From the NCBI GenBank assembly GCA_964556885.1, contig CAZKYP010000001.1:2122-66121 (forward strand): a stretch of 64,000 bases of DNA, given 5' to 3'. Every line of letters begins with the position of its first letter. The stretch's first letter is position 1. Positions 1 through 45,480 of the stretch are shown here, piece after piece. A program made the position numbers and the translations under genes. The DNA comes from an uncultured Pirellulales bacterium (GTDB lineage Bacteria > Planctomycetota > Phycisphaerae > Sedimentisphaerales > Anaerobacaceae). The notes beneath the pieces are model-generated. The model saw only the letters and a program-made list of their open reading frames with translations. It searched no databases and was not told the DNA's origin.

Positions 1-13
1 TATCTGACATCCC

Positions 14-2606: not shown

Positions 2607-2702
2607 CAGCAGTCGACCTGTTTAGCGACAACTGAATAATGGTTAATATGAATAACCAGTTACCCACTACCAATAGCTATTTACGAATAATAGAGATCGA
2701 TT

Positions 2703-5845: not shown

Positions 5846-5904
5846 ATTTTTATGTTTTCCCGTCTAAATTCTATTTTAGAGCTAAAAAGGCTCCGTGTAA
5901 TCAA

Positions 5905-5931
5905 TTATCGATAAAATTCCTTTTCTATTTA
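5905..5931 (-). promoter_or_regulatory. sigma-28 (FliA) type promoter candidate for fliD
   Basis: The minus-sense sequence reads TAAA-tagaaaaggaatttt-ATCGATAA. That is TAAA-N15-GCCGATAA with the CGATAA core intact. It lies in the 94-nt spacer between the stop of the giant gene and the fliD start. Confidence 0.5.
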
Positions 5932-5939
5932 ATGGTTTT

Positions 5940-16878: not shown

Positions 16879-16892
16879 GCAAATTTCGTGCC
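16879..16892 (-). promoter_or_regulatory. sigma-54 -24/-12 promoter candidate inside the modification island
   Basis: The minus-sense sequence is aGGCACGaaatTTGCAg, with GG-N10-GC spacing. It lies about 65 nt upstream of the kinase gene start, in a 208-nt gap. Confidence 0.6.
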
Positions 16893-17024
16893 TGTGGTCA
16901 AAAAAGCCGTTTATCAACGACCATGCCATCCGAACCGGCAAACATGTAAAATTATCAGACATCTTCAATGCTGCAATCATTGTAAATATGCCCCCATCAT
17001 TTGCTTAAAGAGCCCCAAAAAAGA

Positions 17025-17546
17025 TCAAATTAGGTCTGCCGAAGCATCTCTATGTGATAATATAGGACTTTCCACGGGCCACCAGATACCGAACTGCGGC
17101 TCATTCCATCTGTATGTATATTGTTTCGATGGTTCGTAGTAAGTTGACTGCTTGTAATGGAAAATTGTCAGTTCGCTCATAACCAGATGAGCATTTCCGT
17201 ATCTCGGCGGAACCAAAACCTGAAGATTATTCCTGTCGGACAGAACAAATGACTGCCACTTGCCGAAGTCCTTCGATTTGGTATCACAATTAACCACGAC
17301 AAAATAAAATTTACCGTACAAACAGGATATCAGTTTCCATGTACAGTCGTCGCCATGAATGCCGCGCAACACGTTCCTCGTGGAGGTTGAAATATCGTCC
17401 TGGACAAAATTTACATCAATGCCTTTTCCCCTGTATAACTTCTCATTATATGTCTCTATATAGCGGCCGCGGTGATCTTCGAAAGGATCAGGTTGAATAA
17501 CTAAAACCCCATCCAGTTTTGTTTTTTCGACTTTTATCATAATCAA
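17025..17546 (-). CDS. RmlC-like cupin sugar-nucleotide 3,5-epimerase
   Basis: Contains LDGVLVIQPDPFEDHRGRYIETYN and RGIHGD, typical of dTDP-4-dehydrorhamnose 3,5-epimerase-fold enzymes. Confidence 0.8.
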   Translation of the reverse strand: MIMIKVEKTKLDGVLVIQPDPFEDHRGRYIETYNEKLYRGKGIDVNFVQDDISTSTRNVLRGIHGDDCTWKLISCLYGKFYFVVVNCDTKSKDFGKWQSFVLSDRNNLQVLVPPRYGNAHLVMSELTIFHYKQSTYYEPSKQYTYRWNEPQFGIWWPVESPILSHRDASADLI

Positions 17547-17618
17547 TCCGCTCTTTTCATTTCGGCTCGAAAAATATGGAACTAATAACCATTTATATAT
17601 CTGGTTTCCGGCGTGTCC

Positions 17619-19076
17619 CTATACATACATATGCTTATTTTTTGCTTTTCCCCTGTTTTTGATATCCTTCAATAAATCATCGAACTTCCGGCGAAATTCA
17701 TTTAATCGCTCAATTTGCATCTTGTATGGTTTGATATAAAATCTGTCATTGTTGTGATAGTGAAAGCCCGGCGTCCGCCAGAGATTGTCGATGTCCATTT
17801 CGTCGATGAATAGCCGGTCTTTCATCGCCTGCTCGAAGACCGATGTACCGGGCAATGGCATAAGATTCGTAACATATACTTCATCGACATCAATCTCTTT
17901 TATCATGTCGTACGATTCCTGAAGCGTCTGCGGAGTCTCCTCCGGGAAACCGATTACGAAATATGCCTTCAAATATAGATCCTGATATTTTCTTAGTAAT
18001 CCCACCACTTCGTAAATCCTGTCCCGTGACAGATGTTTGCCGATTACCTTATTGCGAATAAAATCCGACCCGCTTTCTATGGCAATGGCGCCTCTTACCC
18101 AACCGGCCTGGACCATCGCGTCCGCTGCTTCATGGTCAAGTGGTGCGACGCTCAAACCATTCGGGGTTTCGAATTGGATATCGAGTTTTCTCTCTATAAT
18201 TTCATTACAAATCGTAATTATGTGCTTTTTTTTCAGATTGATATTATCATCCATAAAGCTGAAGTGGTTCAGACCATAATAGTCATGCAACATTTGCATC
18301 TCGTCAACCACATTTTCGGGATTCCTAAATCTGATTTTCGGCCCCATGACCATATACATCGAACAGAAATTACACCTGTTTGGACAACTCCTGCTCGATA
18401 TGATCGGAACTGTCATACCAAATGAAAGCTGCTTTGGATTGTGCCAGTGGGCTATAGAGTGATAATAGTCCCTGAAATTAATCAAATCGTAAGCAGGGAA
18501 AGCCAGATCGTTCAAATCTTCGATGAAATTTTTCTTGGCGTTTACAATCACCTGACCATCTTTACGATACGCAACTCCTTCCAGCCCGGACAATCCACCG
18601 AGGTCGTCTTTATTAATGGCTTTTGCTATAGTGACAATCTGTTGTTCTCCCTCGCCGATTACCACGTAATCTATCGAAAGGCAATTGGTAATGATTTGCT
18701 CAGCAAATATTGTCGGGTGCATTCCGCCAATGACAATTGGAATATGGTTGTATTCTGCCCGTACCCGCTCCGAAAATTTCAGTATTGGTGGGAATTGTCC
18801 GGAAAACAGACAGCCAAAACCAATAAGTAAGGGGCGAAACTCAGCTATGTGCTGAAGAATGATCTCTTCACAGAAAGTTGTTCTGTAAGTATTCTTCTCC
18901 CAGGGTTTATAGATATTTAAATCGAGTATTTTCACTTCAATCCCGTTACACTGTAAAGCAGCGGCAAGATATAAAAGTGAAGTGGGGGGTATGTATTCCT
19001 TGTTCGGCAGAAAATCGAGCGTTGACGGATTGACCAGTAATACGCCCGTATGTTCTTTTTTATCAATCCTTTTCAT
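17619..19076 (-). CDS. B12-binding-domain radical SAM enzyme (class B, probable methyltransferase)
   Basis: The N-terminal half looks like a Rossmann-type cobalamin-binding domain (LLIGFGCLFSGQF...VIGGMHPT). It is followed by the CxxxCxxC cluster SRSCPNRCNFCSM. Confidence 0.8.
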   Translation of the reverse strand: MKRIDKKEHTGVLLVNPSTLDFLPNKEYIPPTSLLYLAAALQCNGIEVKILDLNIYKPWEKNTYRTTFCEEIILQHIAEFRPLLIGFGCLFSGQFPPILKFSERVRAEYNHIPIVIGGMHPTIFAEQIITNCLSIDYVVIGEGEQQIVTIAKAINKDDLGGLSGLEGVAYRKDGQVIVNAKKNFIEDLNDLAFPAYDLINFRDYYHSIAHWHNPKQLSFGMTVPIISSRSCPNRCNFCSMYMVMGPKIRFRNPENVVDEMQMLHDYYGLNHFSFMDDNINLKKKHIITICNEIIERKLDIQFETPNGLSVAPLDHEAADAMVQAGWVRGAIAIESGSDFIRNKVIGKHLSRDRIYEVVGLLRKYQDLYLKAYFVIGFPEETPQTLQESYDMIKEIDVDEVYVTNLMPLPGTSVFEQAMKDRLFIDEMDIDNLWRTPGFHYHNNDRFYIKPYKMQIERLNEFRRKFDDLLKDIKNRGKAKNKHMYV

Positions 19077-19102
19077 TATGTTAAACTCTCCTGTTTTAAC
19101 AT

Positions 19103-20050
19103 CTACTTGATCGGTCTCCAGACCACGTAAGAATGAGAATCATCGAAGAAATTGCCGAGTTGCTGATGATGAACCTTAATTATCTCAATCCTGCCCTGTT
19201 CCTGAAGTTGACGCAGGTGGGTCAAAAAGCCATTCAAGTAGTTCTTTCTCTTATGATATTTCAATGCCAGATAGTCCGGCAGGGCGTCCTGGTTATAAAG
19301 CTCTATAATTCCCTCTATATTTGCACACAGTTCTGGAGACCTTTTCAGGATAAATTCCAGAAAAGGCCCGAAGTTATCTCCGACCTGTTCCAATGCCCCG
19401 AAAGTAAAGATTGCACTGTCGGGTTCTATCTGTATGTTTTCATCCGGGCTGAAAAAATCAAAATAACCGCCTGTGATAGACCAGTTATAGTGTTTAACCA
19501 ATAAACTTATAATTTCCTGTGAGGTTTGCGTCCAGTCGAAGCCGTAGAGCTTTTTATCTGGAAAAATTGTTGCCAGGTAGGCAAGATGCTGTGCTGCTCC
19601 ACAACCGAACTCATAAATATTTTTCACGTTTTGGAAAAATTTCTGAAAAAACCAGCTTCGAAACAGTTTAGTAGCGTTTACGAAAAAATTCTCATCGAGC
19701 GGAATAACATATTTCAGGTTAAGCCTGACTGAGACGTGTTTTCTGAAATATTTTGGAAATAACTTATCTATGTCAAAACCGGATTCGATTAATTCCTGTA
19801 AGTTTTCACCCCATCCTTTTTCCCATGCCGAGATTCTTTGTGGGCCTGTGACGGTTATTTCTTCGGAATCTATGAATTTAAGAAGTTTAAGGATTAATTG
19901 TTCTTTTTTCTCTCCGTCGATTATTCTATATCGAAAATCCGACTTCTCGATATGCTCTGCACAAAACTGTATGATTTCTTCTTCTGTTGCACCGAAAAGT
20001 TCGGCGAAATCTTTCCCTGTAAGATTATAAAATTTTTCACTATCGGCCAT
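19103..20050 (-). CDS. Class I SAM-dependent methyltransferase
   Basis: Glycine-rich motif I IYEFGCGAAQHLAYLA is followed by the acidic loop KLYGFDW. Confidence 0.65.
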   Translation of the reverse strand: MADSEKFYNLTGKDFAELFGATEEEIIQFCAEHIEKSDFRYRIIDGEKKEQLILKLLKFIDSEEITVTGPQRISAWEKGWGENLQELIESGFDIDKLFPKYFRKHVSVRLNLKYVIPLDENFFVNATKLFRSWFFQKFFQNVKNIYEFGCGAAQHLAYLATIFPDKKLYGFDWTQTSQEIISLLVKHYNWSITGGYFDFFSPDENIQIEPDSAIFTFGALEQVGDNFGPFLEFILKRSPELCANIEGIIELYNQDALPDYLALKYHKRKNYLNGFLTHLRQLQEQGRIEIIKVHHQQLGNFFDDSHSYVVWRPIK

Positions 20051-20080
20051 TTACACAATCCTTTGTTCCGAATACGAGCA

Positions 20081-21199
20081 TCAGATAACATTTATATGAC
20101 GTGGCGGATTGGCCATTTCATAGAGATACCCGTTGATTGAGTGCTGTTTACAGCAGAATTTCTGACACTTGTCCGTCTTGATTTCATCGTAAAAACGGTC
20201 GATAACCTGTCGCCACTGTTCGCTCTGCCAGATTTCCCCGAAGCGTTTCTCCTTCAGGTCACCCAGACAATACCTTTCATCCCGCCAACAGAGCTGACAG
20301 GGATACATTTTACCGTCTGCATCTATGTGTGTTTCGAATTCCACACCGTAACATTTTTTATAAGTCCGGGCAGGCGTGCTGACATTCATGAAATAATCAA
20401 GGTATTGCTCATTAAGGAAGACTTTGAAGTTTTCATCCTCCAGCGCCTTTGCCTCGGTAAACTTATCATTGTATTTCTGGTGGAAGGAGTTGCGCTGCCA
20501 GTGGTGATTTTTATTATGCCCCATCACAACAGACGGACAGGGTTTGAAGGCGTTAATCCCGATATTCTTGAGCAGGCGGGCAGTCTCTGCGATATAGGGA
20601 GTACTAAAGTCGAAAACGATATATGTTGCTATAATCACGACATCAAGGTTATCCCTGTCTCTTATCTTTACCGCTTCTTCCAGGGCATTGATAACAGAAT
20701 GAAAATGTGACTCGGGGCAGCCATGTAGCTTTGCATAAAATTCGGCATTATGTGCCAGGGAACTGACCCGCAAAAATGACAGGCTGGATTCAACCTTCTC
20801 CAGGATTTCCTTATTCAGAAGCACACCGTTTGTGACCAGACATATATCCATACCGGCTTTTTTACCAGTTACAATAGCGTCGGGGACTGCCTTGTTAAGC
20901 AGCGGCTCACCCGTTCCCTGAAGCTCACAGCATTTGACACCGGCTTCACCCATATCATGAAATATTTTTATGAGCAAATCTTCAGGAATAGACAAATTCT
21001 TGAATCCGAGATGCTCTACGTAGCAGTAGAAGCATTTCTGATTGCATCGATTTGTGGCGCTGACTTCCACGTACAACGGCGGAAACTTCTTGCCTTCTTT
21101 CCACTTTTGCAATGTATCGAGATGGTGGAAGATTCCGTGCAGACCGTCATAAGCGCCAAGCTTTATTCGTTGCGATTTTTTCTTTTTATCAGGTTCCAC
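20081..21199 (-). CDS. Radical SAM enzyme with C-terminal SPASM/twitch-type Cys-rich domain
   Basis: Has the cluster motif ATNRCNQKCFYCYV. The C-terminal auxiliary-cluster pattern is CYGVEFETHIDADGKMYPCQLC...LGDLKEKRFGEIW...DKCQKFCC. Confidence 0.8.
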   Translation of the reverse strand: MEPDKKKKSQRIKLGAYDGLHGIFHHLDTLQKWKEGKKFPPLYVEVSATNRCNQKCFYCYVEHLGFKNLSIPEDLLIKIFHDMGEAGVKCCELQGTGEPLLNKAVPDAIVTGKKAGMDICLVTNGVLLNKEILEKVESSLSFLRVSSLAHNAEFYAKLHGCPESHFHSVINALEEAVKIRDRDNLDVVIIATYIVFDFSTPYIAETARLLKNIGINAFKPCPSVVMGHNKNHHWQRNSFHQKYNDKFTEAKALEDENFKVFLNEQYLDYFMNVSTPARTYKKCYGVEFETHIDADGKMYPCQLCWRDERYCLGDLKEKRFGEIWQSEQWRQVIDRFYDEIKTDKCQKFCCKQHSINGYLYEMANPPRHINVI

Positions 21200-22409
21200 T
21201 GGACATACACTCCTTTGGCGTAGATTTTTTTACATCATTATTAATTCTGGCAAAACGGTCCTGCATAAAACCGGTGCCGTCTATATTATGCACAATGCCG
21301 GCTTTCTTTAACTCGACCTCGATAATTTTAAGGCGTTTATTCATTGTCTCGTCGTCAATCTTGTCGTCCCTGTTTGATGAGACGGCGCCGGGAGCGTCAT
21401 AATATTTGCTGACCAGAGCATACGCGGGCTTATAAACTCTCAGGAAATCAATCGTCTCCATGAAGTCACTTTCAGTCTCCGATGGAAAACCGACAATAAT
21501 ATGTGTATCGAAGGCTCTGAAATTCAAATCAATCATCAGGCCGAATACCTTATCCAAATCCTTTCTGTTGTACTGACGCTTCATTGCAGCGAGGATCCTG
21601 TCTGATGCCGACTGGATCGGAAGGTTGATATGTATCAGCCAGCCGTCTTCGATAAACTGCTTCATATCATCGTAAAAATCCAGGAAGTTCTTAGGATGAT
21701 AGTTTTGCAGGGCATAGACGGTCTGGGGATATTCGCAGCGCAGACGTCGGATAAGTTGTGGAAGGGAAGAGCCTGTGTCGATTCCATACATTCCGAGGCA
21801 GTCACCAAGAAGGATAATGCGACGCTGGCCCTGTTGTTCAATCGGTACGCGGCAGACCTCAACGAGTTCATCTTCGCTTACGCTTTTATAAGGCGGAAAA
21901 GCAAGCTTTTCAGTGCAATATACACAATTATATGGACAACCCTGACTAATAAGCAGTTTGAAAAATTGGTCTGCAAAAATAACATCCTCTTCGGGATGGA
22001 GTTCTCTGTATTCTGATGCGTCTGTGCAGATCGCATTTTCGTAATAGACCGGTGAGTATTTGTCAAACGAACCGGCTGGGGCGCCGAAATATTCATCGAG
22101 AAATTTCCCCTCCTTTTTCCAGGGGATAATTTTACCTTTAAAACTACCTTCAAGAAGCTTCCTGTCTATATCGGGAAGACAACCAAGCGATATGACCTCT
22201 CCGGGATATTCCCTGCTGCTGCGTTTTAACTCGGAAATACTGTTGTCGACCACATCTTTTCTATAGCCGCAGGTCCAGACCAGAATAACGTCGCTGTCGT
22301 ATGGATTGGATACGACTTCGTGACCGGTACTTTTCAAAAAACACCTATAATGCAAAAGGCTTTGCCTGCGGAGGGCACAAATGTTCAGTCCCTTGATATA
22401 AACTTTCAT
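21189..22409 (-). CDS. Radical SAM enzyme with MiaB/RimO-like (methylthiotransferase-type) N-terminal domain
   Basis: The N-terminal block DVILVWTCGYRKDVVDNSI resembles the MTTase N-domain. The radical SAM motif is SQGCPYNCVYCTE. It overlaps the downstream gene by 11 nt. Confidence 0.7.
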   Translation of the reverse strand: MKVYIKGLNICALRRQSLLHYRCFLKSTGHEVVSNPYDSDVILVWTCGYRKDVVDNSISELKRSSREYPGEVISLGCLPDIDRKLLEGSFKGKIIPWKKEGKFLDEYFGAPAGSFDKYSPVYYENAICTDASEYRELHPEEDVIFADQFFKLLISQGCPYNCVYCTEKLAFPPYKSVSEDELVEVCRVPIEQQGQRRIILLGDCLGMYGIDTGSSLPQLIRRLRCEYPQTVYALQNYHPKNFLDFYDDMKQFIEDGWLIHINLPIQSASDRILAAMKRQYNRKDLDKVFGLMIDLNFRAFDTHIIVGFPSETESDFMETIDFLRVYKPAYALVSKYYDAPGAVSSNRDDKIDDETMNKRLKIIEVELKKAGIVHNIDGTGFMQDRFARINNDVKKSTPKECMSSGT

Positions 22410-22472
22410 TTTTTCAGTTTCTCCACTATATCACAAGATTTATATGACAATCTAATTTAACTTCTTGAGTTT

Positions 22473-23273
22473 TTATTCCACTTCCAGATATGAAAGTCTC
22501 GAAGTCATTGACATACGCTGTATTCGCATTTTGCGCATGTCAATCGCCTCCCGCAACGCGGCCGTTTCTCCCGGGAAAACATTGTCTACCAAGTCGTCGA
22601 AAACAAGAATGCTTCCCTTGCAAAGATACGGTTGAATAATTTCAAGTGCTGCCTTTGTAGGGGTATAGATATCCATGTCAAAGACTGCCAGCGAAACAAT
22701 GGTCTCGGGATGTTTTTCAAGATAAACCGGAAGAGTCTGTACGACGTCACCTTTAATCAGCTCGAATTTCTTTATATGACTGATTGGATTAAGTTGCTCC
22801 TGGAGTGTGAGAATTTTATCGAGATGATTTTCATAGTTGCTCGTCACGGCGAAGGCGCCATCTTTACAATTATGATTGGAGCCATCTTGTTCGCACATAC
22901 CAGTGTGTCCGCGGAAAGTGTCGAATCCTACGATTTTTCGTGTGCGGTTAAAAGGCTCGAATATGCCACGTAACGACGAAAGGATAGACACTGTCTGTCC
23001 CCAGCGTGTCCCGAATTCGATAATGATGCCGTGCATATTTACAATCTTTTTGTATATTTCATAGAAAAACAAAAGCCTGGAGAAATTCTTGCTTGTAAGG
23101 TATAATCCCAGATTTGACAGAAGCTCATCGTCCGGAATCGGGCTGCTTTTAAGTATTTCAACGAGCTTCATCTGAGTCTCTTTTTCATCCGTACTGGAAT
23201 GGACAATATTTGAAACATTTTGAGTTTGCTTCGTTTCATTGCTCCTGACGTCGGTATATTCTTTTAATTTCAT
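22473..23273 (-). CDS. TylF/MycF-family sugar O-methyltransferase-like protein
   Basis: Contains GIIIEFGTRWGQTVSIL and the metal/SAM fold block LAVFDMDIYTPTKAALEIIQPYLCKGSILVFDD. This resembles the macrocin O-methyltransferase family. Confidence 0.65.
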   Translation of the reverse strand: MKLKEYTDVRSNETKQTQNVSNIVHSSTDEKETQMKLVEILKSSPIPDDELLSNLGLYLTSKNFSRLLFFYEIYKKIVNMHGIIIEFGTRWGQTVSILSSLRGIFEPFNRTRKIVGFDTFRGHTGMCEQDGSNHNCKDGAFAVTSNYENHLDKILTLQEQLNPISHIKKFELIKGDVVQTLPVYLEKHPETIVSLAVFDMDIYTPTKAALEIIQPYLCKGSILVFDDLVDNVFPGETAALREAIDMRKMRIQRMSMTSRLSYLEVE

Positions 23274-23322
23274 TTTTTATTCTCTTTCAGTGTTTATTGT
23301 TTACTCTTGCAGTAGGAGAATT

Positions 23323-24690
23323 TCAGCATGGTATTCCTTTCATTGCCATCTCCAGCCTATTGAGCAATTGTCCGGCCGGAAGATTGTCCTTATATAATAA
23401 CAATTCCGCCTCACATGCCTTTTTTGCATAGCCCAGCTTGCCCAACTGAGCCAGGGCCGTCGCTCTGGCAAATTCCAGATTAGGAAGCCACGGTGAAATT
23501 TCCTTAGCCTTGTCCAGGCTGATTAAAGCGTTCTGGGGCTCGCCGGCTTGCAGCTTTGCAACACCGTCTTTCATCAAGTCTGTAAAATTCGGGTAGCTGC
23601 CTACAAGAAGATTCATGTAATCATTCGCCTTTTCCTTCTGGCCGGATTCCAGGAACGATGAAATAAGTAATTTGAGAGAACCAACATCGTCGAATGATTT
23701 TTCGAGTTTCAATTTGTCGAGTATTTTACCCCAGAAGTTTTCAGGCCTGCAGAGTTCGAATGCTTTGCGTCTGCCGTTTTCAGCTATTGCAATTCGTTCG
23801 GAATCGTGTGTCAGGTAATACCTTGCCTTTTCGGCCAGATCTCTTTCATCTTTGAAAGGGACGAATTCCACCATCGGTTCGAACCATCTCGGTGTTTCAG
23901 GGTTATCTGATTCCAGCAGCATTGTCCCGCATAAGGTCGACTCCATCAGGCGTCCCTTGTATGTCAGCTTATCACCGGAGCCGCAGAAATTAAGAGATAT
24001 TTTTGATCGCTTATATATTCCCGCGTATTCCTCGAGAGTGAGTCTGTCCTCCAGTTGGCCGCCGGTTTTATGCACATTGATTCCGGCCGCTCGCAGGGCA
24101 TTAATGCCTTTAATCCTGTCTTGTTTGTTTATGATGCGGCCGTTAAAACTGATATTGATGTCCCTTTCCAGTTTCGGATCAAAAAATATTGTTGTATCCG
24201 ATGAAAACGGCAGGCTCATGTATTTGTCCGGGCGGGCGATGTTCTTAAAGCTTTCTATAGGATCCGTGGTGATGCCGACGTCTACCAGCGGCATAATTTT
24301 CTCGGCAAGCCTGACTATCAGGTCCGCCCACGTATCGGGCCACATTGCAATAATAGGTATTCTCAGGTTTTTCCTGATAATATACAGAGTCTCGAATGTC
24401 GGATTCAGGTAATCGGGAGCACTGGGCAGCCAGACCAGTACGAAATAATCCGGCCGGACAGCTTTGCACATTTGAATCAATTCCGAATCAACAGGGCGTT
24501 TGAGGGTAAGGTAATGATCGTCAACCAGAAAAACATCATAGGTTGCAAAATCCCAGCCGTTAAGGGTATCCCATGTGAAGTACGCACAGTTGCTTGGTCC
24601 GCGGTTCGGTTCTCCCCTCAGCCACTTGGTGCCCCAGAACAGAAAATGAGGTTTTTCTCTCCGTTTATAATCTGTTTTTGATGCATCCAT
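23323..24690 (-). CDS. CgeB-like (Glyco_trans_1_2 / DUF3880-type) glycosyltransferase fused to C-terminal TPR
   Basis: The central block is YKRSKISLNF...RLMESTLCGTMLLESDNPETPRWFEPMVEFVPFKDERDLAEKARYYLTHDSERIAIAENGRRKA. The C-terminus holds TPR-like helices (ALISLDKAKEISPWLPNLEFARATALAQLGKLGYAKKACE). Confidence 0.65.
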   Translation of the reverse strand: MDASKTDYKRREKPHFLFWGTKWLRGEPNRGPSNCAYFTWDTLNGWDFATYDVFLVDDHYLTLKRPVDSELIQMCKAVRPDYFVLVWLPSAPDYLNPTFETLYIIRKNLRIPIIAMWPDTWADLIVRLAEKIMPLVDVGITTDPIESFKNIARPDKYMSLPFSSDTTIFFDPKLERDINISFNGRIINKQDRIKGINALRAAGINVHKTGGQLEDRLTLEEYAGIYKRSKISLNFCGSGDKLTYKGRLMESTLCGTMLLESDNPETPRWFEPMVEFVPFKDERDLAEKARYYLTHDSERIAIAENGRRKAFELCRPENFWGKILDKLKLEKSFDDVGSLKLLISSFLESGQKEKANDYMNLLVGSYPNFTDLMKDGVAKLQAGEPQNALISLDKAKEISPWLPNLEFARATALAQLGKLGYAKKACEAELLLYKDNLPAGQLLNRLEMAMKGIPC

Positions 24691-24721
24691 ATAAACGTCC
24701 TTTCAGACAAGGTCGACAGGC

Positions 24722-25654: not shown

Positions 25655-25673
25655 GTCGACCTTTTTAACGTTA

Positions 25674-26585
25674 CTAATTCCATTCCACGATTGTGTTTAC
25701 GATACTTTCTTTATCAAGTCCGAGTTTACAATGAATATCTTCCCGTATCCCGTATGTATATAAATGGTCATCCGATACGGCCAGCCGCTTCAATGGAACA
25801 GATACACCGGCATCAGTTAGAATTTCGGCAACGATACTTCCGAGTCCGCCATTGATTGTATGCTCTTCGATTGTTATTGCCTTTTTTATGTTTCTTACAG
25901 CTTGAAGAATGCTCTTCGTATCGATTGGTTTGAGCCTATACAGTTCAACAACCTGCGCTTCAATTGAATACTTGACAAGTTCCTTGGCGATCTCGAGCGC
26001 CCTGTGTACCATCATGCCGGTAGCGATGATACAAATATCCCAACCTTTCTTAAGGACGGAAAATCCTTTATCTATATTTTCGTTTTCTTTATGCAGCAGG
26101 GGGTATTTGCCCCTGTCGAGCCGGCAATAAACGGGTGTTTTGGCTCGAAGAGAGACGTCAACAAGAGCGGCTGCCATATTCGTGTCAGCCGGACTGTATA
26201 TGTGCATATTTGGAAGAGCACGCATAACGGCGATATCCTCGGTGGCGTGATGGGTCGGTCCGTCTACACCGTATGCATAGCAGGGCCCCACACCTATGAG
26301 AGTTACAGGCAGATTCATAGCGCACAAATCGATTTTCAACTGCTCGTAGCAACGCAGTGTAATAAAAGAAGCTATGCTGTACACATAAACCTTCTTGCCT
26401 GCTAAGGCCATACCGGCCGCGACTGAAATAAGATTCTGCTCTGAGATGCCGCCGTTGATAAACTGCTTCGACAGGTCCGCTCGGAATTTATCCAGACTCG
26501 GGGCGCCGTATTCATTGGACATAAAAATTATGTCAGGATCAGATTTTGCCCGAGTATATAGTTTCTGGATAAATGCGTCTCTCAT
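25674..26585 (-). CDS. Transketolase, C-terminal (pyrimidine-binding) subunit of a split enzyme
   Basis: Contains GISEQNLISVAAGMALAGKKVYVYS and GVDGPTHHATEDIAVMRALPNM. It is paired with the adjacent N-terminal subunit gene. Confidence 0.88.
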   Translation of the reverse strand: MRDAFIQKLYTRAKSDPDIIFMSNEYGAPSLDKFRADLSKQFINGGISEQNLISVAAGMALAGKKVYVYSIASFITLRCYEQLKIDLCAMNLPVTLIGVGPCYAYGVDGPTHHATEDIAVMRALPNMHIYSPADTNMAAALVDVSLRAKTPVYCRLDRGKYPLLHKENENIDKGFSVLKKGWDICIIATGMMVHRALEIAKELVKYSIEAQVVELYRLKPIDTKSILQAVRNIKKAITIEEHTINGGLGSIVAEILTDAGVSVPLKRLAVSDDHLYTYGIREDIHCKLGLDKESIVNTIVEWN

Positions 26586-26607
26586 ATTAGTTCCAAATAC
26601 TCTATAT

Positions 26608-27501
26608 CTAACCGCGTTCCAATTCTTCTATCGCCATTTTAATTTCTTCCTTACGGTTTAAGGAACGGACATGCCATGTCGGATCATTTTCCATAAAGGA
26701 AATGCCTTTACCTTTGACTGTTTCGGCGATGATAATCAACGGCGTGCAGGTATCTCTCGAACGGGCATAGCGAAAAGCCCCGTCAAGCTGGTTAAAATCA
26801 TGTCCGTTACATACGACAGTTTCCCATCCGAAGGACTTCCACTTGTCACCAAAAGGCTCAAGGCCCGTGAAATTGTCTGTGAAATCGATTGATCCGATGT
26901 GATTTCTGTCCACAATAGCGACTATATTGTCTAATTCATGTTTGCCGGCAAACATGGCGGCTTCCCAGACCGAGCCTTCGGTACATTCGGCATCACCCAT
27001 CAGTACGAACTGGAAGTGATTTTTGTTATCCATTTTCGCGGCCAGAGATATACCGGCCGCAATTCCAAGTCCATGACCGAGAGAACCGCTTGTGATTTCA
27101 ACGCCGGGTATAGCTCTGTCCGGATGTCCGCCGAGAAAACAGTCACCTCGTCGGTAGCGGGTTTCGAGCCATGATACGGGGAAAAAACCGAGGTCCGCCA
27201 AAACGGCATACAGGGCGGTTTCGCCGTGTCCTTTGCTTAACAAAAATCGGTCCCGGTCTTCCCACTCTGGGACACTCGGGTCAACATTCAAATTGTGACC
27301 ATAGTATAGAGAGACCAGAATATCGACACAGGAAAGTGACGAAACTATATGCCCTCCGGTGCTTATACACATTTGTAATACTTTTTTGCGTATTTGATTC
27401 GCTTTGTGTTCCAATTCAACCGCATTCAGATGAAGTTCTTTTAATGAAGCGATTATCGTTTCCATGTTACGTTTAGTGGTATCTTCTTTTATAATCTTCA
27501 A
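26608..27501 (-). CDS. Transketolase, N-terminal (ThDP-binding) subunit of a split enzyme
   Basis: Contains GGHIVSSLSCVDILVSLYY, LSKGHGETALYAVLADLG, GSLGHGLGIAAG and the ThDP motif GDAECTEGSVWEA. Confidence 0.88.
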   Translation of the reverse strand: MKIIKEDTTKRNMETIIASLKELHLNAVELEHKANQIRKKVLQMCISTGGHIVSSLSCVDILVSLYYGHNLNVDPSVPEWEDRDRFLLSKGHGETALYAVLADLGFFPVSWLETRYRRGDCFLGGHPDRAIPGVEITSGSLGHGLGIAAGISLAAKMDNKNHFQFVLMGDAECTEGSVWEAAMFAGKHELDNIVAIVDRNHIGSIDFTDNFTGLEPFGDKWKSFGWETVVCNGHDFNQLDGAFRYARSRDTCTPLIIIAETVKGKGISFMENDPTWHVRSLNRKEEIKMAIEELERG

Positions 27502-27510
27502 TATTAATCT

Positions 27511-28755
27511 TCAAACCTTTCTCATGACCAGTCTGAGACTGCTTGTTAAAAGCTCTTCTTCACTATAGTCTTGCAGCTCACTTAATATATCTGGTGTCAG
27601 TAGTTCCAAATGTTTGAAGTTCATTCCAAATCTGATATGTACCGGACTTACAATTTGAAAAAGATCAGCTACTATTGACTTGTATTCTCTGGTGCTGATC
27701 TGGTTATATCCATCTGAATAAATATAATCGATATGAGATCCAATCGGGGCTGATTGAATGATCTCTTTGCAGCGATCTTTGTAGTATGATTTCATTCCTT
27801 CGGCGTTCTTTTTTCTAAGATGAATCCAAGGATCGTTCGGAAAAATTGTCTCTTTATGGTGACCAAAAGCCGAGTTCCACAACGGAGCCGCAAAACAATA
27901 AATAATTCCTCTTTTTGCAGTAACTCTTACCATTTCTTCAAGCGCGTCCTTCGGATTTAAGACATGTTCTAATGTCGCCATGGAACAACAAATATCAAAG
28001 GAATTGTCCTTAAATGGTATTTTCTCAGCCGAACCTCTGACATATCTTATCCGGGGATGTGGATAACCTTGTCCCACATCTTCTATTATATCTAATCCTG
28101 TTACTTCTTTGGCTCCCATACAGGCGAGCAAATCACATTCCAATCCCCTATTGCACCCTACATCCAGAACGGTTTGATTACGGATGTCAACATATTTCCT
28201 CATATCATTCAGTAAATTTTGATGATAGCTTTTTTGTTCTTTTTCCTGTTTTGTGCTTTCTTGTTTATGGGCTAATCTATCAAAACTACCTTTGTCCAGG
28301 AAAGCCGCTCTGTTTACGAGGATAAAGTTCTTCTCGACAGGTATGACTATTTTCACCTTTAGATTTTCAAGCCGTTCTATTACATTATCGAGCAGATTTT
28401 CATCTAATTGGCACTGGCTGAAAATCGTATATTCACCTTTTGCTTCCTGGGCCGCCAGGAGACATAACTGCACGAAATCAAGTCCTGCCGGAGGCTTAAT
28501 TATTTTAATGTCGTCGATAATGGTTTTTATGTGGGATTCGTCAATCGCAACTGAGCTGTTATTGATAATTATGAGTTCGTACAGGCCGGGTAGGCTGGTT
28601 GCCAATAGTGAGTGCACGTAATTATATGCGTTTGGACAGTCAGTACCTATAAAAAGAACAATAGAGCATCGTTTCTTGACCCGGTCTGTTCCGTAACCGG
28701 TTGCTGTCTTGACGCTATTAATGACTTTGGTGTTGTTTGGTTGAACACAGAGCAC
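27511..28755 (-). CDS. Two-domain protein: degenerate GT2-like N-domain plus class I SAM methyltransferase
   Basis: The C-terminal half has VLDVGCNRGLECDLLA...VTGLDI...FDICCSMATLEHV (Methyltransf_11-like). The N-terminal half, CSIVLFIGTDCPN...LIIINNSS, resembles a GT-A fold but has no clear DxD motif. Confidence 0.6.
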   Translation of the reverse strand: MLCVQPNNTKVINSVKTATGYGTDRVKKRCSIVLFIGTDCPNAYNYVHSLLATSLPGLYELIIINNSSVAIDESHIKTIIDDIKIIKPPAGLDFVQLCLLAAQEAKGEYTIFSQCQLDENLLDNVIERLENLKVKIVIPVEKNFILVNRAAFLDKGSFDRLAHKQESTKQEKEQKSYHQNLLNDMRKYVDIRNQTVLDVGCNRGLECDLLACMGAKEVTGLDIIEDVGQGYPHPRIRYVRGSAEKIPFKDNSFDICCSMATLEHVLNPKDALEEMVRVTAKRGIIYCFAAPLWNSAFGHHKETIFPNDPWIHLRKKNAEGMKSYYKDRCKEIIQSAPIGSHIDYIYSDGYNQISTREYKSIVADLFQIVSPVHIRFGMNFKHLELLTPDILSELQDYSEEELLTSSLRLVMRKV

Positions 28756-28992
28756 TTGTAAAGCTCCTAAAAACAGTTATCCAAGGTTACCTTTTTAATA
28801 ACTTTTCTTACTCTATAATAAGACAATCGCTTCATTTTGATGTCCTACGATTTTTCCAAGGTAATTTATTGTTCTTGTTAGATATTGATAAAGACCGGAA
28901 CGAAATTGTTGATCCAGTTCTATCTCCTCCTTTCTCAAGAACACGCTTGATTGAACCGTGACTTTCCATTAATATCCACCCCATTAGTTACT

Positions 28993-29322
28993 TTACTGTA
29001 AATCAATATTATTTCGATAAGTTCCGACTATTTTTCTGCCTATGCGGACTTGACAAAGCTTATTGGCGGCGTCGGCCTTCTGGCATTCCAGAGACAAATA
29101 TAAACTGTCATATAATTCCCGGAGCCGTTTCCAATGATCTTCATAACCGGAATGTTTATGTATCCCGGCCTGTGTTATTTTCTGTACGAGTGAATCCGTC
29201 TGTGTGCCGAGCAGTTTGATTTGTTCGCCGGAAGAATTACCATGTTGAACCAGCTCGATCTGTTTTTCCAACATACTCTGTAATTCTCTCAGCATTTGTT
29301 CTTCGGTGGTTGTATTCATCAA
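28993..29322 (-). CDS. Small helical protein of unknown function (possible FlgN/FliT-style chaperone)
   Basis: 109 aa with predicted helical heptad-like composition. Its ATGA overlaps the stop of the upstream TPR gene. I recognise no diagnostic motif. Confidence 0.4.
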   Translation of the reverse strand: MMNTTTEEQMLRELQSMLEKQIELVQHGNSSGEQIKLLGTQTDSLVQKITQAGIHKHSGYEDHWKRLRELYDSLYLSLECQKADAANKLCQVRIGRKIVGTYRNNIDLQ

Positions 29323-29969
29323 ATTTCTATTTTTGCCAGTTTTTCCTGTGCCAGACTGTGTTCGACTTCTTCCAGCAGATTGGATGCATCCTTATGACCT
29401 GAATCCAGCGTCAGAAGGTCATAAAGTACCTGTTTTGACTGCTCCAGCTTTCCGTCTTTCAGATATAACGCTGCAAGCGGGAACATTACAGACGTATCAC
29501 CCGGATGCATATCCAGATACACCTCCAGATAATGAGTAACCTGTTCGAAGGAACCCATCTGGCTGGAAGTTTGAAACAGTCCAAGGAGAGCCGCGATATT
29601 ATCGCTGTCAAGTTCCAGGCATTTCAGATACATCTCGAACGACCGTCTGTAATCGCTTTTTTTCTGTGCCACCAGGCCCAGACCGGCGTAAGCCTTGGCA
29701 CAGTTTTTATCGAGTCTGCATGCAACCTTGAAAGCGGCTTCCGCGTCTTCGAGCATATTTTCCTGTAGAGCAATAACTCCAAGCCCGACATAAGGACCAG
29801 CTTCATCAGTGGCAAGAACCGCCGCTTTTTCGTAATATTTTTTTGCCTGTGTGTAATTACCCAAAGAAGTGTGACAATCCCCCAATTCCTGTAATACTTC
29901 ATAATGTTGCGTAGAGTCATGCTGTTGGTCGATATCGTTTTGGGTTATGTCCATAATTTTTTCCCACAA
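29319..29969 (-). CDS. Stand-alone TPR repeat protein
   Basis: Shows repeated 34-residue A/Y/G patterns: LGNYTQAKKYYEKA, LEDAEAAFKVACRLDKNCAKAYAGLG, YRRSFEMYLKCLELDSDN. Confidence 0.7.
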   Translation of the reverse strand: MWEKIMDITQNDIDQQHDSTQHYEVLQELGDCHTSLGNYTQAKKYYEKAAVLATDEAGPYVGLGVIALQENMLEDAEAAFKVACRLDKNCAKAYAGLGLVAQKKSDYRRSFEMYLKCLELDSDNIAALLGLFQTSSQMGSFEQVTHYLEVYLDMHPGDTSVMFPLAALYLKDGKLEQSKQVLYDLLTLDSGHKDASNLLEEVEHSLAQEKLAKIEI

Positions 29970-30010
29970 GTACTCCGGAGATTTTCACTTGTTCCGGTAA
30001 GTAATCCGTT

Positions 30011-31588
30011 TCAGCGACATCCGGAAAAATATTCCATTTCATTGTTAAGTATCTGTTCAGCCGATTCGAGCAGTTCAATTGCCGAATCGAAATTATTCTC
30101 GTTTCGTTTAATCTTCGCCTCTAATAAAAGCGTATCCACAGAGGGTCTTTGATTGTTAATTTCACTGTTGAGTATCGCTGCTCTTCTTAAATCTCCGGCT
30201 TTATAGAATGCCTTTGCGGCCATAGTCATCATCCACAACCGGTTCCGATGGTTGTCAGCAATGTGCTCAAACAATTCGGCCGCTTCCAGCCATTCTCCAT
30301 CCCGGCCGGCCGATTTAGCCTGTTGGAGTAAATTGTCGAACTGGAAAGGATACTCCTTAAAGTCCGGTTTTCTTACGGCTATTCCGGAAGCCTTTAAAGA
30401 TTCATATACTGGTAAATCAGGCCTGTTTTTTCTGGCAATAAGCAGGTCTTCTTTACGAATCACCGCCGCCCAAAGTTCATCTGTCGATTCTTCAAGCTCA
30501 AGTACCTGCCGGTCAACTGGATTGTTGATCATTGCGTATAGCGGGATTTCGATCCATAGATCCTTTATTGGATATCTGTCAGATACTATTCCGATATAAT
30601 CCCCATCACATTTTTCAAGAACCGCATCAATACGTCGGGCTGAAGATGCTGTTTCATCTACTGGTATGAAAATCAGGTTGGGCATATCGGTATTTAATTT
30701 GGCAAACTCGGACTTTGGCATGGGTATATATATTTTATATGGGTAGAACGTACACCGCCAGATAGTAAGTATGGCCGTAGCAGTCTGTATGTCTACGTGG
30801 TCGGAGAGAAATATGAGTGACATATCCTTAATCTTAGGCCAGGGTTTGGCCGGTCTGGTTGTTCGTATTGTCAGTACGTTCCAGAAATATTTGTTTGTAT
30901 CTTTACGCTGCTGAACCGATATTCTGTCACAGTCACCCATCGGGTGGTAATATTCACCGGTGATTTCATGGACATGATGAAAATCAGAAAAGAAGACCAG
31001 CCGACGAGCCATATCCCAGTCAATTAGAACATTTAGCTGCTCGTTGTAAGGCCCGGTTTTATCAAGCAAATCCAAACGGTGCATCAGGCATACGTGCAAA
31101 ACGTGATTGAATAATAACATAAGGAAACGGTCGAAGTCCCGGCTGACCTCGACAACTTTACTTAAGACCTGCCGTGTGCCGTCCGACATAACTTTACAGT
31201 AAACTTTGTAGAAGTCGCTGTAGGCGACCTGGCAATCGGTATCTCCTTCGAGGGCATCGACCAGTGTCCGGATATGATTGGGGTAATATATATCATCGTC
31301 GTCAAGGTATGCAACATATTTACCTTTGGCCCTTTCAAGGGCTTCATTTAGAGAATGGGCCTTGCCGCGGTTTTCCTTTCTGTTGATAAATATCAATCGT
31401 GGATCTTGAAATGAACGAATTATATCACTAACATCATCACCACCGTCGTTGACCACGAGTATCTGCATATTCTCGTAGCTCTGACCAAGAACGCTGGCCA
31501 GCGCCTTATGCAAATATTGGGGGCGGTTGAAAGTCGAAATAAGCACGCTAACCACCGGCCCGGCCATTTTCTCATAATTTTCCGACAT
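30011..31588 (-). CDS. GT2 glycosyltransferase with C-terminal TPR domain
   Basis: The N-terminus reads PVVSVLISTFNRPQYLHKALASVLGQSYENMQILVVNDGGDD...YLDDDD. The C-terminus has TPR-like helices (WLEAAELFEHIADNH..., AKAFYKAGDLRRAA). Confidence 0.8.
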   Translation of the reverse strand: MSENYEKMAGPVVSVLISTFNRPQYLHKALASVLGQSYENMQILVVNDGGDDVSDIIRSFQDPRLIFINRKENRGKAHSLNEALERAKGKYVAYLDDDDIYYPNHIRTLVDALEGDTDCQVAYSDFYKVYCKVMSDGTRQVLSKVVEVSRDFDRFLMLLFNHVLHVCLMHRLDLLDKTGPYNEQLNVLIDWDMARRLVFFSDFHHVHEITGEYYHPMGDCDRISVQQRKDTNKYFWNVLTIRTTRPAKPWPKIKDMSLIFLSDHVDIQTATAILTIWRCTFYPYKIYIPMPKSEFAKLNTDMPNLIFIPVDETASSARRIDAVLEKCDGDYIGIVSDRYPIKDLWIEIPLYAMINNPVDRQVLELEESTDELWAAVIRKEDLLIARKNRPDLPVYESLKASGIAVRKPDFKEYPFQFDNLLQQAKSAGRDGEWLEAAELFEHIADNHRNRLWMMTMAAKAFYKAGDLRRAAILNSEINNQRPSVDTLLLEAKIKRNENNFDSAIELLESAEQILNNEMEYFSGCR

Positions 31589-31624
31589 TCCAGGAGTATC
31601 TTACTTTCTCTTCGTAACAATGAT

Positions 31625-33181
31625 TTATGTGATCCAATTATTCTCGAATATCCGAGAACCAGTAACAGCGGGATGTTTATATTGCTTGATATTGGAATTT
31701 TGCGAACTGTTACTTTGCGCGGCCGCAGTTTGTTGCGAATCTATTGAGGTCTCAATCTGAGTAAAAATATCGTTGATCTTGTTCAACTGTTTATTCAACG
31801 AATACTTTTCTTCTACAAAACTACGATACCTGTGCGGCTCGTACGGCCCGGAGCAAATTTGTTCGCAAAATTCTTCAGCGATATTGAATAAAAATTCGGA
31901 GGGGAACGTTTCGCTCGCTCCCGGAAAGTTATGTATTACGGGTTTCAAACCGCAAGCCATCGCTTCCAAAAGTCCCATGCCCTGACTCTCGATAAGGCTG
32001 GTCGAAACGATGTAATGTTTGTCCCTGAGCCATGCATTGACGTTTTCCTGCCAGCCGTCGAAGAAAATCACGTTGTTGAGATTAAGAGCATCAACCATGT
32101 GTCTTACATATTGCTCGATGGTTTCATCCTGGAACATACCTCCAAAGAACAGGCGGTAGCCGGGGTCTATATAGTGTAGTTTCTGCATGCACTGCAAAAC
32201 AAAAGCAGGATTCTTCACCGCTCTAATGTTAGACAGGAAGGCTATGTTTTTCCCTCGCGGCCGGTCGACGAAATTAAATTGGTCGAAATTTATACCGTTG
32301 GGAATAGTGACGATTGATGTTTGACTTTCAAGTGATGGGACCTTTCGGAAGAGGGCGTCCTTTACAAACTTGTTACCAATTATTACAAGGTAATCGATGT
32401 CGGACCAGTTTATCTGTTGCGGCCACGGCCCATAAGCTTCATAACGATGCAATCTTATAATGTTCTTACAGACCTTTGGCATCTTGGAACCGATAACCGC
32501 AAGGTCGGTGCACCATTCAAACCATGAAATATCGCTCCATTTCATCAAGTCGTACAGTTCTTCCTCTGTTTTACCGTTAAAAATACGTATTTCAAATCGC
32601 TGGTCTGTAAATTTTGTGATTTCATCAAGAAATTTCATACCATCAGCGCCGCAAATAAATGCCAGCTTCGGTCTTTTGTAACGAATTACATCGATCATCG
32701 GCCGCAATATTTCCTGATCGGGACAAATTTGGAGGGAATGAAGCAACATTTCGATTGCCCCGGCTTTGTTATCCTGATCAAGTAATACATTGGCGGTTCT
32801 GTTCAGAACATCTGCATTTAAGATATTCATTCGCTCCATATCATTAAAAAGCTGTACCGCTTCATTTGCTCTGCCGGTCGCCAGATATGCCTCCACCAGG
32901 TTCCAAACTATTTCACCGGAATCGTTTTTCAGGGAACGGGCCTTGAGGAAATGATCTATGGCTTCTTTTGAGCGGCCCAGGCAATGGAGAATCGCTCCTG
33001 TATCATTCAGGGCCTGTGCATCATTTTTATCGGTAAGAAGATATTCCTGCATGTACACAAGGGCCTGCTCGTATTGTCCGTTTTCGGCTAATTTCAAACC
33101 TTTTTCGTAATTATTGAGGTTTCCATGGTTTCCATCATGTATTTGCCCATCGTGGCTGTTCAAATTTATGTCCTTTATCAT
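31625..33181 (-). CDS. N-terminal TPR domain fused to GT-B (GT4-like) glycosyltransferase
   Basis: The N-terminus has TPR repeats (GQYEQALVYMQEYL, GRSKEAIDHFLKARSL, GRANEAVQLFNDM). The C-terminus has the GT-B signature STSLIESQGMGLLEAMACGLKPVIHNFPG (E-x7-E region). Confidence 0.78.
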   Translation of the reverse strand: MIKDINLNSHDGQIHDGNHGNLNNYEKGLKLAENGQYEQALVYMQEYLLTDKNDAQALNDTGAILHCLGRSKEAIDHFLKARSLKNDSGEIVWNLVEAYLATGRANEAVQLFNDMERMNILNADVLNRTANVLLDQDNKAGAIEMLLHSLQICPDQEILRPMIDVIRYKRPKLAFICGADGMKFLDEITKFTDQRFEIRIFNGKTEEELYDLMKWSDISWFEWCTDLAVIGSKMPKVCKNIIRLHRYEAYGPWPQQINWSDIDYLVIIGNKFVKDALFRKVPSLESQTSIVTIPNGINFDQFNFVDRPRGKNIAFLSNIRAVKNPAFVLQCMQKLHYIDPGYRLFFGGMFQDETIEQYVRHMVDALNLNNVIFFDGWQENVNAWLRDKHYIVSTSLIESQGMGLLEAMACGLKPVIHNFPGASETFPSEFLFNIAEEFCEQICSGPYEPHRYRSFVEEKYSLNKQLNKINDIFTQIETSIDSQQTAAAQSNSSQNSNIKQYKHPAVTGSRIFENNWIT

Positions 33182-33254
33182 TTTCTATACTCCCTTATAG
33201 ACCTTATTTATAGCAAGTCCAGTTGCAATAACAGCCGAAGCCTTTTTTGATTCA

Positions 33255-33268
33255 GCAAATTCCGTGCC
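33255..33268 (-). promoter_or_regulatory. sigma-54 -24/-12 promoter candidate at the head of the modification island
   Basis: The minus-sense sequence is cGGCACGgaatTTGCTg, with GG-N10-GC spacing. It lies about 75 nt upstream of the TPR-GT gene ATG, which is preceded by an AAGGGAG Shine-Dalgarno site. Confidence 0.6.
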
Positions 33269-33391
33269 GCCCGCCCGAACCAATAAATAAAGGCAATAAT
33301 ATGTTGGCCGGCCCGGAAATCTGTATAAATATCAAACATCCGCGCCTTTTAAGATGGCTGCATTTCTTGCTTTGATTCTGGTAAATACTGA

Positions 33392-45385: not shown

Positions 45386-45465
45386 AAATTTTTACCTTAT
45401 TGTTTACAAAACCAATTTTTTCTGTGTACCTCGTTACTATTCAGAAACAAGCCAGTTAATATTGA

Positions 45466-45480
45466 GCAATTGTCGTGCCA
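45466..45480 (-). promoter_or_regulatory. sigma-54 -24/-12 promoter for the flgD-to-flgL operon
   Basis: The minus-sense sequence TGGCACGacaaTTGCTc is a full match to TGGCACG-N4-TTGCW. It lies about 80 nt upstream of the flgD ATG. Confidence 0.75.

Follow-up and report, generated by a model that had tools for sequence, protein, structure and literature searches.

We describe here a stretch of 64,000 nucleotides (contig CAZKYP010000001.1; the whole stretch is called the window below) from an uncultured, Sedimentisphaerales-like planctomycete, in which glycosyltransferases and sugar-nucleotide synthesis genes are embedded in a flagellar gene cluster, as they are in flagellin glycosylation islands. 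Our subject is the promoters of this island, in particular two sites, P1 and P2, that resemble promoters of RNA polymerase carrying sigma-54 (RpoN). According to Pfam and NCBIfam assignments, the plus strand carries fliOPQR-flhB (121-3791). The same strand has a gene for a sigma-54 activator, or enhancer-binding protein, EBP1 (45949-47442), then a gap with a sigma-54 site and, 3' of this gap, the genes TPR835 and TPR288 (for proteins with tetratricopeptide repeats, TPR), a second activator gene (EBP2), fliLMN, flhA and fliA. On the minus strand flgD-flgE-unknown-flgFGAHI-unknown-flgN-flgK-flgL runs from 45385 down to 33392, and fliD lies at 3806-5845. The island between flgL and fliD is read from the minus strand too. 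It consists of the P1 operon (28993-33181), a middle block (17025-28755) and the P2 operon (5940-16816), the last gene of which, a giant one, is separated from fliD by 94 nt. Intergenic DNA makes up merely 6.1 kb of the 64 kb (9.6% of the window), and on the minus strand it includes a gap of 210 nt with P1, one of 237 nt between the head module of the island and its sugar genes, and one of 208 nt with P2.

Five sites in the window have the form of a sigma-54 promoter. They precede fliOPQR-flhB (13-28, plus strand, CGGCACGCTATTTGCT), the kinase operon (P2; 16878-16893, minus strand, AGGCACGAAATTTGCA, 61 nt from the GHMP-kinase start at 16816) and the head of the island (P1; 33254-33269, minus strand, CGGCACGGAATTTGCT, 72 nt from the start at 33181 of a gene called here TPR-GT, after its TPR and glycosyltransferase (GT) parts). 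The remaining two stand before the rod, hook, ring and hook-associated protein (HAP) operon flgD...flgL (45465-45480, minus strand, TGGCACGACAATTGCT) and before the block TPR835-TPR288-EBP2-fliLMN-flhA-(fliA) (47597-47612, plus strand, TGGCACAGTAATTGCT). Each of the five lies in a gap and faces the following gene, whose start codon is 61-92 nt from the end of the site. P1 and P2 show GG at -24 and GC at -12, 10 nt apart, fitting TGGCAC-N5-TTGCW, and the ribosome-binding sites AGGGAG and AAGGA precede the start codons behind P1 and P2. Exact matches to the core GGCAC-N5-TTGC number six in the window, where 0.34 would be expected, and none of 100 dinucleotide shuffles reaches this number. A stricter 16-mer, searched with up to one mismatch, finds the five sites and nothing else. 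When all positions on both strands (128 kb) were scored with a sigma-54 matrix built for this analysis, the five sites took ranks 1 to 5 with 16.2-19.0 bits (P1 16.5, P2 16.2), and seven positions reached at least 14 bits, compared with 1.2 in shuffled sequence.

A preliminary description of this DNA had listed the same five sites. Its coordinates and strands are all borne out, and so is its remark that the sites occupy otherwise rare intergenic gaps. The leader distance of 65-95 nt that it gave is correct within a few bases, and the two island sites, which it called nearly identical, differ at 2 of the 15 bases of the sequence it used. All five sites of its list are present, but it overlooked the sixth exact core match (7867-7880, minus strand; 7866-7881 as a 16-mer), which lies in the giant gene, where it spells G-T-K-L-A codons and has no upstream dyad of the kind described below. 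This match is probably a coincidence of coding, with an internal promoter as the alternative; one relative (L073) keeps the motif with G-T-M-L-A codons. We also set aside a match in fliL (52824-52839, plus strand, TGGCAGGTTATTTGCC, 15.1 bits, 140 nt into the gene). Among the six contigs collected by means of EBP1 it is kept only in L161, whose EBP1 ortholog is 88% identical, and not in L162-L166.

Related loci came from three sources, and their gene order was mapped by tblastn of the window proteins. A scan of a genome collection with the TPR-GT protein gave 80 loci (L001-L080), each from a different species and 57-70% identical, and almost all carry titles naming Planctomycetota, Phycisphaerae or Sedimentisphaerales. 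Another 80 loci were obtained when metagenomes were scanned with the kinase, the closest having a kinase at least 72% identical. Finally, orthologs of EBP1 (67-88% identity) led to the six contigs L161-L166, which have the same neighbouring genes as the window. One contig of the first set (L076, JAIVYN010000006.1) bears the title Candidatus Aegiribacteria. It nevertheless shows full synteny with the planctomycete loci and 70% identity in TPR-GT, and has probably been binned wrongly.

P1 is conserved across these species. A match of at least 10.4 bits is found in the spacer between flgL and TPR-GT in 70 of 74 related genomes (TPR-GT 57-70% identical), most of them reading CGGCACGGAATTTGCA and most lying about 60-130 nt before the estimated start codon. 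When the spacers are anchored on P1, the positions GG, A and TTTG carry 2.0 bits of information, as against 0-0.5 in most flanking positions. In 1.29 Mb of related DNA, 55 matches of at least 13.5 bits stand upstream of TPR-GT and 4 upstream of fliO (in 4 of the 4 loci that reach fliO), with 19 more scattered. Another 15 fall inside the TPR-GT gene; these we do not regard as promoters, 14 of them (GGCAAGAATATTGC) encoding a conserved GKNIA peptide. Three relatives have lost the site, a deletion having taken the 3' half of the upstream dyad and the whole sigma-54 box (L011, 2097-2251; L040, 9835-10001; L076, 9829-10001). In these three a new ribosome-binding site and the TPR-GT start codon follow directly after the leftover half-dyad, and TPR-GT is presumably transcribed along with flgL. 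We take P1 to be the original promoter of a glycosyltransferase module that has been conserved.

The dyad just mentioned was spotted in the 130 nt upstream of P1 in relatives, as a second block of very strong conservation. It is a 17-nt inverted repeat of the type TGT-N11-ACA, with the consensus TGT(T/C)(T/C)GATATTTATACA in relatives. Only two matches with at most two mismatches exist in the window, and they lie upstream of the two island promoters. The copy at P1 (TGTTTGATATTTATACA; 33322-33338, minus strand) has no mismatch, stands 52 nt before the P1 16-mer and scores 36.6 bits with a matrix built from relatives. The copy at P2 is a variant (TGTCTGATAATTTTACA; 16945-16961, minus strand) and stands 51 nt before the P2 16-mer. 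Both are candidate enhancers. The same matrix yields 72 matches upstream of TPR-GT, more at P2-type promoters (variants in L081-L085, L088, L093 and L121), and 2 strays in about 2.6 Mb. Two distances from dyad to promoter prevail, 50-53 nt (65 instances) and 60-63 nt (12 instances), with 79 and 100 nt seen once each. The spacing is thus quantised by one helical turn, which fits an enhancer for a sigma-54 activator. In the three relatives with the deletion, the same event removed the promoter and half of the dyad.

When the regions of P1 and P2 in the window are aligned, two stretches match, the promoter and the dyad with its flanks, but the DNA in between does not. Both regions thus show the same modular cassette, for which an origin by duplication is possible. 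Between the P2 dyad and P2 there is also a weaker, A/T-rich element (GTTGATAAAC; 16909-16918, minus strand), about 15 nt before the -24 box. Relatives have counterparts of it, GC(R)AATA(W)AC, at the corresponding position in front of P1. It is possibly a DNA-bending site. A sigma-28 reading of this element, based on GCCGATAA-like strings in some relatives, was rejected, there being no TAAA 15 nt upstream, and so was a site for integration host factor (IHF), whose consensus does not fit when judged by eye. A third cassette was considered at 28876-28892, on the opposite strand in the 237-nt gap, and dismissed; the sequence there is weakly dyad-like, has 3 mismatches and is not followed by a sigma-54 box. 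In three of the related loci (L082 at about 5830-5940, L083 and L084), two to three aatttgccggttttagctgcagaat repeats are inserted between the dyad and the P2-type promoter, and the dyad is consequently pushed to about 100 nt from the promoter.

P2 itself, the internal promoter of the island, is conserved, but in a narrow lineage only. A site of the type (A/C)GGCAC(G/A)NAATTTGC, or a weaker variant of it, is present in 8 close relatives (L081-L085, L088, L093 and L121) at 10.4-15.8 bits and 59-67 nt before the kinase start. It was not found in L087 and L089, and in distant kinase loci, where the kinase directly follows the RmlC-like gene, no sigma-54 site was found either. L081, L083, L084 and L086 have the kinase, nucleotidyltransferase and giant GT genes in the same order as the window. 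In our opinion P2 very probably puts the recently added operon of these three genes under the same control as P1.

The promoters of the structural operons are conserved as well. In L161-L166 the flgD promoter reads TGGCACA(A/G)(C/T)AATTGC (TGGCACAACAATTGCT or close variants) and that of TPR835 reads TGGCACA(G/A)TTATTGC, while the fliO promoter, CGGCACG(C/A)TATTTGC, is kept in 4 of 4 related loci reaching fliO. Such orthologous conservation across dozens of species, together with the two activators encoded nearby, makes it very likely that the five sites are working sigma-54 promoters, as had been proposed. The core boxes fall into two groups, CGGCACG-NNA-TTTGC (P1, P2 and fliO) and TGGCACA-NNW-ATTGC (flgD and TPR835 in relatives), and the upstream elements differ too. 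With the dyad matrix, the best scores at the flgD and TPR835 control regions of 7 genomes are at background. Nor was the dyad found upstream of fliO, where the repeat is TTGTCAAGTTTTTCGACAA and unlike that of the island. The TPR835 promoter is preceded by an inverted repeat of its own, TGTCAGAAAATCT-N11-(T)AGAATCCTGACA (47464-47500, plus strand), shortly behind the EBP1 stop codon and 96 nt from the TPR835 box. This repeat and the promoter are the only conserved blocks of that spacer. It scores at background with the island matrix and is a candidate for a second-class enhancer, related to but distinct from the island dyad. The flgD region holds, as judged by eye, a GGAAATTTTTTCTGG-like block. 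Since the flgD, TPR835 and fliO promoters lack the island dyad, the island promoters form a class of their own, and it is more likely that they are served by a separate activator class.

It had been claimed that the promoters place glycan synthesis in the same tier as rod, hook and export genes. In the strict form of this idea, one activator would switch on the glycan genes together with the rod, hook and export genes. Indeed the core geometry is common to all five sites, the half-site TGTCAGGATTCTATACG of the TPR835 repeat resembles the island dyad (10 of 17 positions identical), and in Xanthomonas one master activator, FleQ, can serve several promoter types including those of a glycosylation island (PMC8657755). 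Nevertheless, we regard a single tier as unlikely. The dyad is missing from all three structural promoters, which carry other elements instead, its matrix giving background scores at flgD and TPR835 in 7 of 7 genomes; the core boxes are split into two groups; and of the two activators encoded at the locus, one belongs to a sigma-54 operon, as is usual for a two-step cascade (PMC4481668). What lacks support in the earlier claim is thus the shared tier.

The two activators had been noticed before, near 45949 and 51112, and both indeed have the loops that contact sigma-54. EBP1 combines a degenerate receiver domain, an AAA+ domain with GSFTGA and a Fis-type helix-turn-helix (HTH). EBP2 (51112-52647, plus strand) has a receiver domain, an AAA+ domain with GAFTGA and the same type of HTH. 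Judging from gene spacing, EBP2 sits in the operon downstream of the promoter at 47597, with the same layout in L161-L166. The best NCBIfam matches of both proteins are generic ones (PrdR, NifA, AtoC, FlbD), far below every cut-off. At the other end of the island, a sigma-28-type promoter, TAAA-N15-ATCGATAA (5905-5931, minus strand), stands directly upstream of fliD and is the only strict intergenic match of this type in the window. In 12 related loci fliD is likewise preceded by a CGATAA core and, 15-16 nt further upstream, TAA(A/G), and L045 has a CGATAT variant. No sigma-54 site was found upstream of fliD in the minimal loci, in which the island is at its shortest.

The genes behind P1 and P2 are of three kinds. 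The P1 operon is a conserved head module of four minus-strand genes, of which Pfam identifies TPR-GT (TPR plus a GT-B glycosyltransferase; 31625-33181), a GT2 glycosyltransferase (30011-31588) and a TPR protein of 216 aa (29319-29969); the fourth encodes a 109-aa protein (28993-29322) with no family match. The 216-aa protein has a weak match to SycD/LcrH type III secretion chaperones (48.8 bits, below the cut-off). The middle block comprises 11 genes of sugar synthesis and modification, among them, by Pfam, a methyltransferase-GT2, a split transketolase, an epimerase, a GT, a methyltransferase, three radical-SAM enzymes, one unknown and an RmlC-like epimerase. The P2 operon has three minus-strand genes: an HddA-like GHMP sugar kinase (15821-16816), an HddC-like nucleotidyltransferase (15067-15831) and the giant gene (5940-15101). 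The last encodes 3053 aa with six GT2 domains, one GT9 domain (heptosyltransferase-like), a SAM methyltransferase and TPR blocks, and its product looks like a glycan assembly line in one polypeptide, to go by its domains. Partial orthologs of the giant protein were seen in L029, L074, L081, L083 and L084.

In the relatives the order is unknown-flgFGAHI-flgN-flgK-flgL, TPR-GT, (GT2), TPR protein, 109-aa protein, variable sugar genes, fliD, with flhB-fliRQPO on the strand opposite fliD. The content of the middle block varies from one relative to another. In four minimal loci (L004, L045, L051 and L053) the 109-aa gene is followed directly by fliD, with no extra sugar genes, and the genes for the 216-aa TPR protein and the 109-aa protein are kept even there, immediately before fliD. 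Since the head module stands between flgL and fliD in all relatives examined, minimal loci included, it is a core part of the flagellar cluster. The gene of a 413-aa protein between flgE and flgF (42014-43255, minus strand) keeps its place in nearly all related loci too; this protein has no significant family match, only a faint one to PilZ (E = 0.02).

Whether the two promoters bring glycan synthesis under RpoN, as had been stated, is a different matter. The head (4 genes) and the tail (3 genes) lie behind sigma-54 sites, but the 11 genes between them do not: in the 237-nt gap in front of them (28756-28992) there is no match to either type of promoter, sigma-54 or sigma-28. For co-regulation they therefore depend on read-through from P1. 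The same gap holds a possible open reading frame of 54 codons.

The synteny also bears on another possibility, namely that the promoters are real and answer to a non-flagellar activator from elsewhere, a regulator of the cell envelope or of exopolysaccharide (EPS), the island being merely co-located with the flagellar genes. Sigma-54 is widely linked to EPS and lipopolysaccharide (LPS) genes (PMC3162934), and because of this a sigma-54 promoter alone cannot separate a flagellar from a capsule or EPS locus. The dyad is unlike the elements of the structural operons. In addition, a sugar cassette (epimerase, B12 radical-SAM enzyme, split transketolase, RmlC-like, HddA-like and HddC-like genes) recurs in many contigs of L094-L153. 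These have no flagellar-gene match in the DNA fetched and mostly lack a sigma-54 site before the kinase, and the recurrence suggests a mobile pathway of the modified-heptose type that was recruited to the island. On the other side, more than 70 genomes have P1 and its dyad at a fixed place between flgL and fliD, among them the minimal loci that have no sugar-synthesis genes, and in the 2.6 Mb examined the dyad occurs only inside flagellar clusters or at P2, the two strays apart. Moreover, the first gene has the TPR plus GT-B layout of the flagellin glycosyltransferase FlmG (PMC7591256). We find a non-flagellar activator quite improbable. The earlier conclusion that the island belongs to the flagellar programme is in this sense retained. 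It is the synteny and the shared, phased enhancer that speak for it, while the core motif, which had been offered as direct evidence, is not decisive.

The dyad could also be something other than an enhancer, either an operator for a repressor or another protein, or a signal for the 3' end of the flgL transcript. The P1 dyad does lie about 50-60 nt after the flgL stop codon, so that a role at an RNA 3' end is conceivable. However, the P2 dyad lies downstream of an unrelated RmlC-like gene at a matching 51-52 nt from its promoter, the spacing is phased by the helical turn, the dyad disappears together with the promoter, and its AT-rich sequence forms no stable hairpin. A centre about 95 nt before the predicted start is the standard place for a sigma-54 enhancer such as the NifA site. 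To us this possibility appears remote, even slightly more so than that of a non-flagellar activator. That the motif matches are chance or by-products of coding is hardly credible, for although coding constraint does produce matches (the 14 loci with GGCAAGAATATTGC and GKNIA, the giant gene, fliL), the five sites are intergenic, correctly oriented, ranked 1 to 5 and conserved where their flanks are not.

We are thus left with the interpretation that P1 and P2 are, very probably, promoters of RpoN on which a sigma-54 activator acts from the dyad. The cassette would consist of the TGT-N11-ACA dyad, about 30 nt, the A/T-rich element, about 15 nt, and the -24/-12 box. A sigma-54 activator, most economically EBP1 or EBP2, would bind the dyad, whose centre lies about 95 nt upstream of the predicted start, would contact the closed complex of RpoN and polymerase through a DNA loop, always from the same face of the helix, and would open the promoter by ATP hydrolysis. 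As to history, the variable sugar genes were probably inserted downstream of the ancestral P1 module, between the flgD-flgL operon and a fliD driven by sigma-28, and in the lineage of the window the last three genes would have gained a second copy of the cassette, P2, leaving the 11 genes between the two operons to be reached only by read-through from P1. The likely order of events would be that EBP1 activates the flgD and TPR835 operons (the latter with EBP2 and fliA), that EBP2 then acts on P1 and P2, and that FliA acts last, on fliD. The target of the glycan would presumably be flagellin. Taken as a whole, with RpoN promoters in phased cassettes, a class of their own and a cascade, this explanation has our confidence to a good degree, resting as it does on comparative sequence analysis.

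Several points weigh against it. The gene rpoN is not in the 64-kb window, its presence being implied by the two sigma-54 activators that are encoded there. No flagellin gene was found among the proteins scanned in the window, despite a near-complete flagellar set; the sole protein among them with a Flagellin_N domain is FlgL (TIGR02550, 169 bits). No histidine kinase domain was found among the proteins scanned, the neighbours of EBP2 being TPR proteins and fliL, and it is possible that the activator of the dyad is encoded elsewhere. Strong terminators were not found after flgL, the 109-aa gene (hyp109) or the RmlC-like gene, only weak hairpins; without terminators after flgL or the RmlC-like gene, read-through from the flgD promoter may contribute, and P1 and P2 may only boost expression. 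P2 is kept only in a narrow group and could be young. Finally, the A/T-rich element is degenerate in the P1 copy of the window.

Known systems provide several parallels. Two-activator cascades are well described, FlrA then FlrC in Vibrio and Aeromonas, and FleQ then FleR in Pseudomonas (PMC4481668, PMC3120886). They share with our locus two activators, one with a degenerate receiver and the second in a sigma-54 operon, as well as fliA and late promoters of the sigma-28 type, and promoter classes are told apart by different enhancers, here the island dyad, the TPR835 repeat and the fliO repeat. The comparison of EBP1 and EBP2 with FlrA and FlrC is one of layout, the NCBIfam scores being far below the equivalog cut-offs. 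Unlike those systems, the window has no kinase of the FlrB/FleS type that we could find. Further, the planctomycete rod, hook and HAP genes appear to be grouped with the export and switch genes, while the glycosylation module makes up a separate class. The dyad may also be compared with the NifA-type enhancer, TGT-N10-ACA, which is located about 100 nt upstream of a sigma-54 promoter on a fixed helix face. The island dyad differs in having a spacer of 11 nt, not 10, and a strongly conserved AT-rich centre (TTGATATTTAT).

As for glycosylation islands, the flagellin glycosylation island GigX1-10 of Xanthomonas oryzae pv. oryzae is transcribed under RpoN2/FleQ (Yu et al. 2018, as summarised in PMC8657755). 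The likeness lies in a multi-gene glycosylation island within a flagellar cluster, controlled by sigma-54 and a flagellar activator, with fliD and fliC left to FliA. The difference is that GigX depends on a single FleQ and belongs to class II with the structural genes, as demonstrated by experiment, whereas the planctomycete case is deduced from sequence and has a dedicated dyad. In Pseudomonas aeruginosa the island lies between flgL and fliC and its content varies between strains (Arora et al. 2001, cited in PMC4020848). It resembles ours in being a sugar island of variable size directly downstream of flgL. The planctomycete island differs in standing between flgL and fliD, with no flagellin gene nearby and a conserved head module first. 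Reportedly, Dasgupta et al. found in 2003 that the Pseudomonas island depends on FleQ/RpoN. A sigma-54 promoter has likewise been attributed to Cj1293 of Campylobacter. In Caulobacter crescentus FlmG is a flagellin O-glycosyltransferase whose TPR domain binds flagellin (PMC7591256). TPR-GT resembles it, as far as domain layout goes, which alone was compared, in an N-terminal TPR and a C-terminal GT-B part and in being encoded with flagellar genes. The difference is that the planctomycete sugar pathway looks heptose-like (HddA/HddC-like and RmlC-like genes) and not like that of pseudaminic acid.

For Xanthomonas it has been established that RpoN controls flagellin glycosylation genes, and the gain from our analysis is hence one of breadth and detail, not of principle. 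We found no literature report on flagellar gene regulation, sigma-54 control included, in Planctomycetota. For this group the locus provides a regulatory map that can be tested, with five conserved sigma-54 promoters, at least two enhancer types, two activators and a sigma-28-type promoter for fliD. The spacing classes one helical turn apart, seen across about 70 species, are clean comparative evidence for activation from one face of the helix. More tentatively, and with rather less than even confidence, one may speculate that planctomycetes of the Sedimentisphaerales type have a hitherto undescribed flagellar hierarchy with a conserved FlmG-like glycosylation module as a sigma-54 class of its own, marked by the phased TGT-N11-ACA dyad and served by EBP2, which new genes would join by copying the cassette, and that glycosylation is a hard-wired checkpoint between completion of the hook and the sigma-28 late genes. 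On the interpretation preferred here, the locus would show how a sugar island of variable content is tied into a fixed developmental programme, by a cassette at its head and, before recently acquired genes, by a second cassette of the same layout.

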